This document shows positions 22,917 through 53,362 of a DNA stretch of 63,826 bases, piece by piece; the first letter of the stretch is position 1; the number at the start of each line of letters is the position of its first letter. Position numbers and translations under genes: made by a program. The notes beneath the pieces were generated by a model, which ran no database searches, was not told the origin of the DNA, and saw only the letters and a program-made list of their open reading frames with translations. The stretch comes from Mustelus asterias (Eukaryota), in contig NW_027591183.1 of NCBI RefSeq assembly GCF_964213995.1, positions 175 to 64,000 of the forward strand, given 5' to 3'.

Positions 22917-23435
22917 ATGAAGCTCAGCTTCGCTTCAGTGATCATCTCCCTGGATTTCTTACTCTTCCCTCAGTGTAAGTGTGGTCGCTATTTCTGACAG
23001 CGATATTTCACACATTAGCAATGCTATGTTCTGTTAAATAGTATTCTGTTTTGTTGTGTTATCTTGTATTATGCATTCAATTGTACTTCATTGTGCAACA
23101 TTGTATTGCAGTATGAGATTTTAATTTTATGATGTTGTTGCATATCTACATATCCTTCCCAGATGCCGCTGGTAGTGAAGAGGTATCACAGTCCCCAGAG
23201 TCTGTGGTGGTTACCGAGGGAGACCTAGCATCGTTGAACTGTTCCACTACAGCAGCTGGACTGGTCCTACAATGGTACAGACAATACCCGGACCGAACCG
23301 TGCAGCACCTGGTGAGCGGTACCAGCGATCAGGGCAGGATCAGGGCTCGGAACATTGTTGCAGAGAAACGCAGCGTTCTGAGTGTCGGCGACACTCGGGT
23401 GACAGACACTGCTACCTATTTCTGTGCGGTGGGCG
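22917..23435 (+). CDS. TRAV: V7: TCR alpha-type V segment with a very short CDR2, apparently functional
   Basis: Leader 22917-22974. V exon 23163-23435 (EVSQSP...LNC...LQWYRQ...DTATYFCAVG). RSS CACAGTG-23-ACAAAAACC at 23436-23474. Confidence 0.95.
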
Positions 23436-23676
23436 CACAGTGTTGTAAAGATCAATACGAGTCGTACAAAAACCGATAGAGGAGCAGTCCTGACAGTTTG
23501 CCGCCTGTGCTTCATCAAAGAGATAGACATTTTATAAACTTTATTGTAGTAAATCCACTGAAACAACACAGCCCTCCAAATCTATAGCAAATCATTTCCT
23601 TCGCAAGCCGTATCGGGAGATATCAGCAGAAGTAGTCGTGTTTCATAAGTCATTTGCATCTGTTTGCGATTTTCTG

Positions 23677-26839: not shown

Positions 26840-27480
26840 GTTAACACTGATAACAAACTTATTATTTTTTGAAATATTCTTATGAATTGTCAATGTTGCC
26901 ACTCCTGTAGTTATGTAACATACATTCGATGGATAGACTAGTTCCCATTGCACAAGTTCCCAAATTATCGAACGATATTTTAGGACTAACATCAGGACCT
27001 TCTTCTTGTCAGACCGGGACTGGTCACAGTGTGGAATGAAACTTCAGAAAGAACGAGAGAGCAAAATGCACTGCAATCGTTGGATCGTAGAACAGAAGGA
27101 ACGTTGTAAGCTCTCCCGCAATGAAAGAGCTATAACAAGAAGGAGGAAACAGCTCTTCTCATTTATAACTATCTCGTGAACTGCAACTTGTCGAAGATCC
27201 AAGTGAAGAATTGCACCCTGGAATTACCAGTATTCACCAGTAGAGAGCAGTGTGTCGCGTGAGAAATATTTAATCTGGGCGTGTCAGGTGTGTCCTCAGA
27301 GGTTGTGTGGGCCTGTGTCAGTGTGAAACGCTCAGTATGGGTGGCTAAAGTAGAACCCGCCTAATGTTGTCAGTTCAACATAAACACGGCACTGAACTGA
27401 ACCCGAAGAGAATACTTGGTTCCGGGTTAATTTCCATCTCCTGGTTCAAAGCTGATCTCGGTGTTGTGTGTGAACTGAGA

Positions 27481-27813
27481 ATGGTCAGGATTTGCATCGA
27501 CGTTTTGTTGTTTATCACTCTGATCTGCACGGGGATGACCGGAGAAGCTGAGTTGCTGCAGCTCCCTCCACGGATGGTTATCAGTGAAGCGAGAAATATA
27601 TCCATGAACTGCACTATTTCCATTACGTTTGACATCGTGCGTTGGTATAAACAGCTCCCGAATCAGTCACCCCAGCATCTGGTGATGGCCACAAGAGGAA
27701 CCGATCAACATGGGAGGATCACTGCTTCGATCGGTGAAGGCAGCAAACTCAGCATCCTGACTGTGAGGGACGTACAGGTTTCAGACACTGCCACCTATCT
27801 CTGCGCCGTGAGG
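27481..27813 (+). CDS. TRAV: V9: intronless (single-exon leader+V) TCR V segment with RSS
   Basis: Continuous 111-codon ORF MVRICIDVLLFITLICTG-MTGEAELLQ...MNC...WYKQ...DTATYLCAVR. RSS CACAGTG (27814)-23-GCCAAAACC (27844-27852). Confidence 0.92.
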
Positions 27814-28211
27814 CACAGTGTAAAAAACACAGGCAGGTCCCGTGCCAAAACCTGCACCGCTTTCAAAAACCGCTCCGCAGAAATATCAGTGTTTCAACAA
27901 GCGCGGTATTAAATTCCAATGGTAAGGGGAATGAGAGCGAAACATTTCTTGAATCAGAAAATTTTAAAAAGCTTAAAATGAAGAGAGTTGGGAATGTATT
28001 CAAAGAAAATGGAAGAGGTTACATGCAAATCAGAATGAAAGAAAGACAAAGCGAAAAAGTGCAGTAAGAATACGTAAAGAGCCGGACTGTATGACCTGAA
28101 GCCAACAGACAGCACGGCCTCCCAGTCTTTCCTGTCGTCTATCACGCAAGTCTTGGACGACGGCGAGCGGGAGAGCCTGACAGACCGGTAGCTCTGGATG
28201 AGCTGACAAAG

Positions 28212-28950: not shown

Positions 28951-29394
28951 ATTATCCTGATCACAGGTTGGTCATTTTGAACCTTTGACTGAAATCCGCC
29001 AATCACCATATTCATTCCCCATTTCCATTTCTAGGCGATTATTCCGTTGTTGTTACTCCTTCTAAACCGCTGCGCGTCTGTTGTCTATTTTCAGAGATGA
29101 GCAATGGAGACTCAGTTTCCCAGGAGTTGACGCAGCAGAGGGTGAAGATTCAGCAATACCCTGCAGTTACTCTGTGCTGAGTTCAGCTACAGTCTATGTC
29201 CTGTTCTGGTATTGCCAGTATCCACACCGAGCTCCTCAGTATCTGCTCAGACCCGATAGTTATGGGTTTACCGATACGGCTCCCGGCTTTGGACACTTCA
29301 GCGGGAATCTCAGCCAGACACAAAGCTCTTTTCACTTGTCCATGAAAGATTCCAAGATGACAGACAACGCCGTGTATTACTGTGCACTGAGACC
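28951..29394 (+). pseudogene. TRAV: V10: V6-family pseudogene with intact RSS
   Basis: Only 28951-28966 of the leader remains. A 10-nt deletion near the start of the V exon (which begins at 29095) causes a frameshift. RSS CACAGTG-23-ACAAAAACT at 29395-29433. Confidence 0.9.
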
Positions 29395-30360
29395 CACAGT
29401 GAATGAGGATCCCGCGGGCCTCGTACAAAAACTGGCTCAGGTCCACAATCAATGGTTCCTTGTCCGCAAAACACATTGCGTTGAATTTCAGAGAAAATGC
29501 GCAGATCATGACCCTGACAATGCAGCCCCAGCTGAGTGGCTTTCAGTCCCTAACGTCAGTGATTGTCACTGTTGGGGAAATGTGACATTTGGTGCTCAGT
29601 TTATTCCTGGATAAATCCAATCATTTCCTGATCCCAATCACACAAAACCCACAGATGTCCCGGGTGAATAACTTAATAAATCAGTACTTCCAATCTTTCT
29701 GTATCAGATGCCTATCTGTCAGGGGACACCTGTTAAATGTGATCTAATATCAAAGGCACACTGAGAGTTGTCACATTTTGAAGTTTCTGGACAGAAATAA
29801 TGACTGATTGAAATCAGTACTTTCCCAGTATAAGAGTAATCCCAGTGGAAACGCAAGTCAATGTGGACTTGGGTGATGACTTATCCCCGGTATAAATAAA
29901 GCAGTAACTACTATTATGTTCATGCAGTGGATGCACTCATTAATACCCGCAGAGTAAATGAGTGTAAATTATTTATTTCACTTTTAACTTTATTTAGAAA
30001 GTAAGATCTATCTATAAAAAGGGGGACATTGAGTTCGAACGAAAGAGGGTTAACCGAGAAAGCGACAGTGTAACTGATAATGTTATTCACCTTTCATGGA
30101 GAGAGAAAGAGAGTGAGAAAAACACACACAGCCCGAGATGGAATGTGTTTGGAGGGAGCCAGCTGTGTTTAGTCCTCCATCAACAGGGTTTGGTCCACAG
30201 CTGACGTCATCTCAAGGGGACCAGCCAATTGCAACACTGAGAAAAGCCCCCAATTTGCCTATTGTTGAAGTTGCCTCTGATCTGAGTTGACTCCGTGATA
30301 TAAACTAGAAGCAACAACATATTTTAAACAGTGTCGCTGTTTACTGTCCAATCAGGATCC

Positions 30361-30805
30361 ATGTGTTCCCTGTGTGCTTTACTGATAATAATGGTCATGC
30401 TGCCCGGTGAGTCTGAGCTCAAATCCTCAGTGTGTGTTTCATGGGTTATATTCACTCAGATTTCTCACACAGTCTATATGTTGTTACAGGAACCAGTGGC
30501 CAAAGTTCAGTTTCCAAGGAGCCGCCTGAATTAACGGTTCAGGAAGGACAGACGGTAATTTTGAACTGCAGTTATAAAGCAAAATACGTTGACCAAACTC
30601 TATTCTGGTACATCCTGTATCCCGGAGAAGCTCCGAGATATTTATTGAAAAGTTACGGCAAGGGGAAGGGGGCTAAGTCTCCCGATTTTTCGGACCAGTT
30701 TTCTGCTAATTTGGACAGAGACAAGAAAACAGCTTCATTAAATATGACCGGGGTCCGTGTCTCTGACTCTGCTGTGTATCTGTAACAGTGTGCGCTGAAC
30801 CGCAG
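30361..30805 (+). pseudogene. TRAV: V11: V13-family pseudogene with scrambled 3' end and heptamer
   Basis: Leader 30361-30406. V exon from 30490 is open to DSAVYL*. Heptamer position reads ACCGCAG; spacer and nonamer (30829-30837) are intact. Confidence 0.92.
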
Positions 30806-32231
30806 TTACAGAGACACAGTTAGTCCGTACAAAAACCAGCAAAGGCATTCTCACCTCCTCTCACTGAATCCGATCTCTGAGCTGGATTGTGAACTGTTAA
30901 TATAAACAAAATCATATCATTAAAACCAGTTAAACCGAATGATCACGTTCTTTGTGCTGAATGTCTGTCAGTGTATGTAAAATCCCTCTTTATAGTAGTT
31001 TCTGTGGTTTACGAGCAACTCTGAATAGGAGACGCTGGTGCTGTTATTACAACATGAAATAAAACTCATCAGAGTCATATCTCAAAAATCATCTCAGTCA
31101 AACCCCTACATTCGCTTTAATGCGCTCTATGTGTCAAAGAGAGCGATGATTATACAGTCGTTTGATTTCTTGAAGACAGTTGATGGATTTGTGGATATTC
31201 AGGGAAATAACGGATATCGAGGTAGTCATAGAGGTTTACAGCATGGAAACAGACCCTTCGGCCCAACTTGTCTATGCCATCCTTTTTTTAACCACTATGC
31301 TAGTTCCAATTGCCCGCGATTGGTCCATATCCCAACAAAATATTTGTCTGAGCAGAAAGACTTATCCCGCGGTTTCGATTTCCCAAAGTACTTCTGGTGA
31401 TTACAGCAGACTTTTAAAGAAAGACTTCCGGGTATGTGGGTGTTGCTGGCTCGGCCGCTATTTATTGCCCATCCCTAGTTGTCCTTCAGGAACTTTCTGA
31501 CGCTCTTTTCAATTAGGGTTCTGCATTCAGTCGATTTTCTTATCAAATGTTCCAGTGTCTAGAGTACACCAAACCTGTTCTTAGAGATAATTTACTTATT
31601 AATCATTGTTCATTGGATTCTAAGCATGCATTGAAATAAACTTCTGTACCTTTACTGTTAAGAATTCTTAGTTTTAATATGTGTCAAGTGTTCATTGTGT
31701 TAATATGAGTCACATTTTTCCGAACTCTTTCCAATGAAGTTTCTCTTCGATTCCCAGTTGATATTTTTATTTCATTACTGTAACATTGAGAGATGTTTAA
31801 TCATGCTGATGTGATTATGAGGATTTGCCTCAGCAGGCGGGCATCAGTTTACACTATTGACTGACATATCAAACCAAACAGCATTGGTTTCTTTGCCCCG
31901 AGTGTTTTTTGAAACATCAGAACAAGGGTACAACTAGTTCAAGGCTACCCTGCAGCATTTTGAATTCTCAACATTAGTGCCGATTTCCCGGTGATTCCAA
32001 ATAAACAACAGCTAATTCTTCCCTCGCACGGTGAATGTAACAATCAGACGGAATCTGTGAACGATTTTAGATGGTGTTTGTGTGAATTGTGGGCTGGTTT
32101 GCGTTCACAGGAATGTATTGACGTGTCAGTGTATAACCCGCTGTTAGAAACAGCTCTTGACAGACAGCAGCTGTGACTCAGAAACCTGCGGCAGTTTTTG
32201 TACGAGGATTTCACTCATTTTCATCACTGTG

Positions 32232-42446: not shown

Positions 42447-42930
42447 GGTCTCATTGCACAGTAAGTCACGACTCTGTCTGTCAGCTTCAAACCTTTCTTG
42501 GACAAGAGAAAAGTGCTTTGTTTCAGGCTGAGATTCCCGCTGAAGTGTTCAAAGCCGGGAGCCTTATCGGTAAACCCATAACCACTGTTTCTGAGCAGAT
42601 ACTGAGGAGCTCGGTGTGGATACTGGCGATACCAGAACAGGTAATTTTGTTGTGCAGCTGTACTCGATACAGAGTAACAGCAGGGAATTCGTGAATGGTC
42701 ACCCTCTGCTGCTTGGATTACCGGTACTGACTGGGACACTGAGTCACCATTGGTCATCTCTGAAAATAACAACGGACACAAAGCGGGTTAGGTGGAATAA
42801 CAACAACGGAATAAAATCGCCTAGAGATGGAAATGGGCGATGAATATGGTGATTGATGGATTTCAGAGGTTTAGAATGACCGACCTGTGATCAAGACAAG
42901 AACCAGAGTCAGATAGAGTTTCACCCCCAT
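42447..42930 (-). pseudogene. TRAV: V14: V6-family segment with an open frame but the RSS deleted
   Basis: Leader 42930-42885 (MGVKLYLTLVLVLIT). V exon 42759-42447 ending DRVVTYCAMRP and joined directly to post-RSS flank. CRE, GC box and CCAAT upstream. Confidence 0.9.
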
Positions 42931-50200: not shown

Positions 50201-50509
50201 ATAGACAAGGATCCTTCGAATATTGACTCACCGAATAGCACGATGATTTCAATCTGGAAGCACCGTGGAACACGTGCTCCCCGGATGACATTTCCACAGA
50301 AAATAATCGAACTTAAATGTATTTTGTCCTTTCTCTTTTGATATTAAACAGTAAACCCAAATCAGGGACAGGTCTCGCTGATCGGGTGACTGTGGCGCGT
50401 ATCCAAGGGAGAGAGTGATTAAAGTCCCAGCTCTCTACACAGGCTGTACACGTTCCGGGTGATCGCCGCAGGTTTTTGTACGGCCCTGTATGGTCTTTGC
50501 TACACTGTG

Positions 50510-51012
50510 CCTCCATCGCACAGAAATAGGTGGCGGTGTCTGTCAGCCGAGCTTCACTAACATTCAGAACGCTGCGTTTCTCTGAGAAACTGTACTGAGC
50601 CGTGATCCTGCCCTGATCGCTGGTACCGCTCACCAGGTGCTGCACGGTTCTGTCTGGATTTTGTCTGTACCATTGCAGGATCTGTACAGCTACTGTGGCT
50701 GAACAGTTCAACGATGCAGTGGCTCCCTCGGTAACAACCACTGACTCCGGAGACTGTGATAGCTCTTCACTGCCAGCGGCATCTGGGAAGAATATGTACA
50801 TTTGCAGTAAGAACATATCGTACTATAATGTAGCACAATAAAGTACCATTGTATTCACAATTCGAGATAATACAATAAAGCTGAGTACAATTTAACAGAA
50901 CATAACATTGCTGAGGTGTGAAATATTGCTGTCAGAAATAGTGACCACACTTACACTGAGGGAACAGTAAGGAATCCAGGAAAATAATCACCAAAGTGAA
51001 GCTCAGGAACAT
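50510..51012 (-). CDS. TRAV: V17: V7-family short-CDR2 V segment, apparently functional
   Basis: Leader 51012-50955. V exon 50782-50510 ending DTATYFCAME. RSS CACAGTG-23-ACAAAAACC at 50509-50471. Confidence 0.95.
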
Positions 51013-52864: not shown

Positions 52865-53362
52865 ATGGTGAACTATCTCACTCCGATCCTCATCATTCTC
52901 TCACTTCTCAGTAAGCATTTTCTTCCCAGTAAAACTACAAGCTCTTCCTGACTGCTGTAACCCAGATATTCTTGTTGATAAAACAATAGTGATGATGATA
53001 ATTGTATCGTTTAATCTGAGGCTAACTCTGATTGTCATATTGCTGTTGTTTCTGTTAGAACGGAGTCACCAAGACGAAGTGGAACAATTGGATGCTGTAA
53101 AAAAGGTTAAAGAGGAAAATGATGTCACACTAACCTGCGCTTTGAAAACAAGCGATTCCAGCCCTAATGTGTACTGGTACAGTCAGCAGCCCGGGAAAGC
53201 TCCAGTGTACATGTTTCAGCTTATTGGAGAGAATGTACAAAGGAACACCGACCTCAATGATCGGTTTTCTTCCAAATTTGATAAAAAGAACAAGACTACC
53301 GAGCTGACGATCAGTAACACACTGATTTCCGACAGCGCCGGGTATTTCTGTGCCATGAAGCC
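52865..53362 (+). CDS. TRAV: V18: TCR alpha/delta V segment, open, 24-bp RSS spacer
   Basis: Leader 52865-52910 (MVNYLTPILIILSLL). V exon 53059-53362 ending DSAGYFCAMKP. RSS CACACTG-24-ACAAAAACC at 53363-53402. Confidence 0.92.

Follow-up and report, generated by a model that had tools for sequence, protein, structure and literature searches.

An unrearranged shark T cell receptor V gene with leader and V domain in one exon, and the intronless family to which it belongs

The single-exon gene V9

V9, located in a window of 63,826 nucleotides (the whole stretch of Mustelus asterias DNA that was analysed), is an unrearranged T cell receptor (TCR) V gene in which the leader and the V domain are encoded in one exon. 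Its open reading frame (27481-27813) contains both conserved cysteines and the tryptophan, and is directly followed by a recombination signal sequence (RSS) with a 23-nt spacer (27814-27852), in agreement with what had been proposed from the sequence alone. The features of V9, and of the two intron-bearing genes used for comparison, are as follows:

27481..27813, + strand: leader and TCR V domain of TRAV type in a single coding exon of 111 codons (stop-free open reading frame)
27481..27543, + strand: predicted signal peptide of ~21 amino acids, its cleavage site placed by analogy
27528..27533, + strand: site (27532/27533) at which the phase-1 leader intron usually lies; reads CACGG/G, no acceptor
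27610..27612, + strand: first conserved Cys (Cys44), from the V9 translation
27643..27645, + strand: conserved Trp (Trp55), from the V9 translation
27802..27804, + strand: second conserved Cys (Cys108), from the V9 translation
27814..27852, + strand: 23-spacer RSS, CACAGTG-23-GCCAAAACC, from a pattern search
27315..27480, + strand: probable unspliced 5' UTR of V9, from RNA-type contigs of a related species
22917..23474, + strand: V7, sister gene with intron, for comparison; leader exon of 58 nt, intron of 188 nt, V exon and 23-RSS
50471..51012, - strand: V17, another sister gene with intron, for comparison; leader exon of 58 nt, intron of 172 nt

The heptamer of the V9 RSS matches the consensus and the nonamer has two mismatches to it; across the window, the 23-RSS pattern was matched three times versus 0.01 matches expected. 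Of the characteristics of a TRAV segment, the open V frame, both cysteines, the tryptophan and the 3' 23-RSS are present in V9, and the split leader is absent. The nearest Atlas clusters are TRAV, and the best TCR matches in the PDB are TCR alpha chains, ranked below two antibody constructs. V9 is not joined to a D or J segment and its RSS is intact, unlike V genes of the germline-joined type. The predicted signal peptide has a basic n-region, a hydrophobic core (hydropathy 3.34 for residues 8-15) and small residues preceding the mature domain, and the leader is in register across the subfamilies of the V9 family and in a bamboo shark protein. The 5' UTR of V9 contains an in-frame ATG at 27364, which is lacking in the tandem copies found on contig C71, where an in-frame stop is located immediately 5' of the main ATG. 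Many copies of the family carry an in-frame stop shortly 5' of the ATG.

At 77 nt 5' of the Cys44 codon, V9 reads CACGG, whereas all 12 other V genes of the window that could be parsed and have an intact FR1 read YAG. A leader exon of 34-58 nt with a phase-1 GT donor was located for 10 of these 12 intron-bearing genes, and for the remaining two (at 11.4 kb and 32.4 kb) the best leader candidates are 46-nt exons farther upstream. V7 and V17, already named from the sequence as the closest intron-bearing relatives, are indeed nearest to V9 among the V genes of the window (38-39% identity), and in their family exon 1 measures 58 nt and the intron 171-189 nt. Several intron-bearing V genes of the window, the V7 family included, contain an in-frame ATG within the 3' end of the intron that reads as a pseudo-leader. 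Hydrophobic pseudo-leaders of this kind occur at 53007-53070 (+), 6309-6440 (-) and 23129-23162 (+); they may mislead gene prediction and could serve as an alternative start. Because intron-bearing genes also give such pseudo-leaders, a hydrophobic in-frame read-through alone is no proof of intron loss. The sequence-only reading had taken the read-through of V9 as its sign; the loss itself stands, based on the missing AG, the conservation across the family and the RNA-type contigs, but the read-through does not carry it.

Copies, relatives and transcripts of the V9 family

We searched the genome (3.68 Gb in 5313 contigs), and scored 150 of 1248 candidates. By hand count, about 71 of the 150 scored matches begin at residue 9 or before it and cross the junction without a change of frame, with 58-100% identity. 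V9, at first regarded as a lone event, is therefore one of approximately 70 family members. Most of these matches, with three duplicate loci dropped, form a set of 64 copies on 35 contigs, which is a count of assembled copies in which near-identical ones may partly be haplotype duplicates. The intron and the junction AG are absent in all 64, making a local assembly slip unlikely. The family consists of at least four subfamilies. Twelve single-exon V genes are arranged in tandem with ~2.45-kb spacing on one contig (C71:19363811-19397248, L016-L027); they vary mainly in CDR1 and most have consensus nonamers.

The 48 leader bases of nine representatives show ~0.24 differences per site versus 0.19 in FR1, whereas the intron end of the sister family shows ~0.47 differences per site versus 0.16 in its FR1. 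Thus, the leader of the V9 family diverges about as much as FR1, and the sister's intron end about three times as much as its FR1, indicating that the leader evolves at a coding-like rate. The leader pN/pS of 0.71 is weak evidence of purifying selection. Judged from this divergence, the V9-family leader is real coding sequence, with a predicted role as signal peptide. One subfamily has 58 nt between ATG and junction, which is also the length of exon 1 in the sister family, and the others have 52 nt. Upstream of the ATG, strong splice-like motifs were observed at ~105 nt in L038 and L043, and L016 has a donor-like motif at ~190 nt and an acceptor-like motif at ~30 nt, which suggests a 5' UTR intron in two subfamilies. 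One family match, L069 (C14:97891534-97891692), was considered as a retrocopy of a rearranged transcript and rejected, as it has neither a J nor a poly-A. What is left of this family V gene is its 3' half, in decayed form; it is an orphon, flanked by SINEs and lying at a great distance from the locus on a chromosome-scale contig.

In a tree of the V domains of this genome, the V9 family is monophyletic (support 95/94) and the V7/V17 family is its sister (99/99). This tree contained one non-V junk row, which was omitted from a later tree with outside proteins obtained by a representative search. In the latter, the V9 family is supported at 99/98 and includes GCC41311.1 of the bamboo shark Chiloscyllium punctatum, which matches at 53% across leader and V. 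A second bamboo shark gene model also has the family leader, and the independent contig ORF P0003, open from the leader through the RSS, belongs to the family as well. Two single-sequence protein searches gave no matches, and an alignment-based protein search gave 8 proteins. A V of the elephant shark is placed with V7 (94/75) and has its best matches among V7-family genes; when this protein is included, the support for joining the V9 family with V7 drops to 80/65. For the Scyliorhinus P0100 family, no orthologue was found at E<=1e-15 among the 150 scored candidates, and a metagenome scan yielded 2 loci, neither of which is a V9-family member at useful length. Since the V9 family is sister to an intron-bearing family, the absence of the intron is derived, as the sequence-only reading had supposed. 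One ancestral intron loss, predating the split of the subfamilies, is likely from this topology, and it would be common to the bamboo shark if the bamboo shark models are single-exon.

Transcript evidence came from run X1, which consists of contigs from a related species that are ~90% identical; a further run, X2, looks like the same data set. The RNA nature of X1 is inferred from a splice-site control: X1 contigs end their alignment within 4 bases of the acceptors of four intron-bearing V genes (15349, 17801, 23162 and 24542), indicating that X1 is spliced RNA, and that the V9 relative in it is unspliced at the junction. One 406-nt contig is colinear with V9 over 27468-27774, with a loose 5' end that resembles the sequence upstream of V9. 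Another covers 27315-27446 and continues with homologous letters, and a third runs past 27812 into J sequence with FGxG. No X1 contig covered the sequence past the V9 RSS. A leader exon spliced in from upstream had been named beforehand as the observation that would speak against a single exon, and what was found instead is a contig that crosses the V9 junction unspliced. These X1 contigs stem from one study of another species and are compatible with pre-mRNA. In the 5' region where other subfamilies carry splice-like motifs, the X1 contigs of the V9 subfamily are unspliced. The X1 joint table is dominated by repeats, and none of the 15 joints listed (there are 121 more) is of the GT-AG type. 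A 140-nt skip in the DNA-type run X3, with AG..GG ends, was discounted.

Rearranged TCR-alpha cDNAs from nurse shark thymus and spiral valve have been described (Ott et al. 2018, PMC5931798), and by eye 7 of the 447 rows of the cDNA table look like the V9 family. These are rows 391-394 and 400-402 of supplement 3, labelled 'aV9.1', which share the FR1, FR2 and FR3 motifs and a short CDR2. Row 403 resembles the V7 family rather than the V9 family. The label 'aV9.1' spans at least four unrelated V types in rows 385-403 of that supplement, so the V9 family has no clean name in the nurse shark data. Unlike V9, the nurse shark rows begin at the mature V and are uninformative on leader and intron, and the word 'intron' is absent from the main text of that paper. 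V-J transcripts, which the sequence-only reading had pointed to as a way to follow V9 up, were hence found at the family level, as the X1 contig that enters J and as the nurse shark alpha cDNAs recognized by eye. At this level, and in related species, the V9 family is an old, expressed TRAV family that rearranges to J-alpha.

Origin of the single-exon architecture

We consider it probable that one in-place, in-frame fusion of the leader exon with the V exon produced a founder gene, from which the large shark family descends. The founder would have lost its leader intron in this fusion by genomic deletion or by cDNA-templated conversion, two routes that would be inseparable. Tandem and segmental duplication would then have spread the intronless founder, and the members would recombine via their 23-RSS to J-alpha, splice J to C only, and use the family leader as an ordinary signal peptide. 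The loss had been called precise, a term that the leader does not bear out: it is equally near to the sister's exon 1 (identity 0.374) and to the 3' end of the sister's intron (0.372), with slid controls reaching up to 0.40. Local alignments of the leader with the UTR, exon 1 and intron of the sister family gave no consistent match, and the T content is 0.49 in the last 30 nt of the leader, 0.46 in intron ends and 0.41 in exon 1. A DFLLF match between V7 exon 1 and the leader was discarded, being limited to one subfamily and shifted by 4 codons. So was a presumed relic of exon 1 5' of the ATG, which was not above shuffles (sister family and 3/8 control families compared). The RSS spacer of the V9 family resembles that of the sister family, indicating that the RSS was inherited. 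The earlier proposal of a cDNA that ran through the RSS is hence not supported. An in-place loss leaves the RSS untouched and needs no such cDNA, so sterile V transcription in germ cells, which had been deduced from it, does not follow from the intron loss of the V9 family.

Recruitment of the intron end as a leader, which we regard as doubtful, would likewise leave a single exon: the 3' acceptor would have been lost, an in-frame intronic ATG and the pyrimidine tract would have become the signal peptide, and the old exon 1 would have decayed. In this case, product and function would be unchanged, but there would have been no clean removal of an intron. The junction reads YACNG in 58 of the 64 copies, one base off a YACAG acceptor and in exact register, the leader resembles intron ends in being rich in T and poor in AG, and the sister family and several other V genes hold an in-frame ATG in the intron end. 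Furthermore, the leader matches the intron end of the sister family better than shuffled sequences do (p=0.008), and better than in any slid register. However, the sister's exon 1 scores equally, equally high values are reached by the intron ends of unrelated families (0.37-0.40), genuine first exons also end in T-G or P-G, and no relic of exon 1 was found upstream. The Thr codon at the junction is ACG in 29, ACT in 11, ACC in 3 and ACA in 0 cases (n=43) and ACA-type variants were seen at all 4 other NCG sites, which hints at selection against re-forming the acceptor, although avoidance of ACA is expected with any origin and the 4 control sites are non-independent. That the pyrimidine tract in the intron of an expressed shark TRAV family was turned into the signal peptide of this family, with selection keeping the acceptor from re-forming, seems rather unlikely to us; if true, V genes could become intronless without reverse transcription, which might account for the bird families as well.

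The in-place fusion also has to be weighed against a retrocopy, in which a sterile V transcript, spliced and extending through the RSS, would have been reverse-transcribed in germ cells and reinserted. The loss at the canonical phase, the normal leader length and the LINE-type ORFs in the locus would fit such an event, and the marsupial TRMVj has been proposed to be retro-derived (Parra et al. 2008, PMC2275272). Nevertheless, it is improbable, as the copies lie within V arrays amid ordinary V genes and the sister-like RSS requires no RSS in a cDNA. The TSD or poly-A flanks that had been suggested as a trace of retrocopying were not observed, neither a TSD pair flanking V9 nor a poly-A of more than 8 behind six RSSs; this is weak evidence, since after so long a time marks of this kind would no longer be expected. 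Still less probable is an ancient single-exon TRAV lineage common to sharks and birds. All but 3 of the 48 chicken TRAV1 genes are single-exon according to Fruh et al. (2024, PMC10972964), and forcing the V9 family together with two avian QVQQ Vs (curlew and sparrow models) costs 8.1 log units, which the AU test does not reject (p=0.0555). In contrast, the maximum likelihood (ML) tree sets the avian Vs near an intron-bearing shark family (weakly, 76/90), they score 100-109 with the best intron-bearing shark families and 58-96 with the V9 family, and the V9 family nests beside its intron-bearing sister; the assignment of the two avian gene models to TRAV1 is based on the motif only. The idea of an ancient single-exon lineage shared with sauropsids thus stands as far as the old lineage is concerned, whereas the sharing with sauropsids is disfavoured by the ML tree and the scores, and not rejected by the AU test. 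Hardly credible, finally, is an assembly artefact or a pseudo-leader with the true leader exon upstream. Many copies are 98-100% identical and possibly haplotype duplicates, but the intron is lacking in all 64 copies on the 35 contigs, including subfamilies with identities as low as 58%, P0003 and the two bamboo shark models carry the leader in register, and an unspliced contig spans the junction.

Comparison with known systems and the surrounding locus

A split leader is described as canonical and universal in antigen-receptor genes in a 2025 paper (PMC12227049). V9 resembles such genes in the hallmarks of its V domain, in its 23-RSS with a related spacer and in leader length, and differs in lacking the leader intron. 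The architecture is known from chicken, where nearly all TRAV1 (V-alpha1) genes and the majority of TRGV1 genes have a single exon (PMC10972964). Like the V9 family, chicken TRAV1 is unrearranged, has leader and V in one exon and an RSS, and forms a large family of 48. The V9 family is unlike it in being a shark lineage that is separate from the avian gene models on the ML tree and has no QVQQ near the V start, and, in this comparison, in having an intron-bearing sister family in the same locus. The intron loss is probably convergent with that of the chicken family, as the tree suggests. The leader intron is also absent from the marsupial TRMVj (PMC2275272), a single gene already joined to D and J in the germline, whereas V9 is unjoined with its RSS retained and is one member of a large family. 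No report of single-exon V genes in sharks was found in the literature searched, and a single-exon family is apparently unreported in sharks, although papers on the nurse shark locus or their supplements may mention one. Among unrearranged V genes, the known exception to the split leader is that of chicken, to which sharks would add a second one, probably independent and old. V genes can thus expand and be used without a leader intron, and annotation that requires an acceptor would miss or miscall ~70 shark V genes. The V9 family and its intron-bearing sister in the same locus form a natural pair to probe the role of the leader intron in expression, rearrangement and hypermutation.

The window contains ~19 V-like segments in both orientations. 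Among them are damaged V genes or relics at 8522-9040 (+), 9859-9960 (-), 29084-29433 (+), 30480-30850 (+) and 42449-42772 (-), with stops, a frameshift, a lost heptamer or a lost leader exon. Elsewhere in the genome, a TCR alpha-type unit is multiplied, being found at C106:666000-694100 (L051-L054) and at 18 further places. A Pfam DUF1968 search for C-alpha gave no matches, with the controls also silent. The C106 unit comprises 5 J segments in 20 kb, an intact C Ig exon at 688.1 kb, a connecting-peptide exon at 691.2 kb and a transmembrane (TM) exon at 693.8 kb, followed by V genes in mixed orientation. The stretch with the TM exon occurs at 19 places with 96-100% identity, three of them on C71 (7.14, 11.05 and 12.27 Mb). 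This repeated unit could represent a multi-cluster TCR-alpha arrangement (a translocon has been reported for sharks), or partly haplotype duplicates. Inside the V array of C106, on the minus strand at about 748000-748950 (L059), lies a 314-aa single-exon ORF, which we take to resemble a G-protein-coupled receptor.
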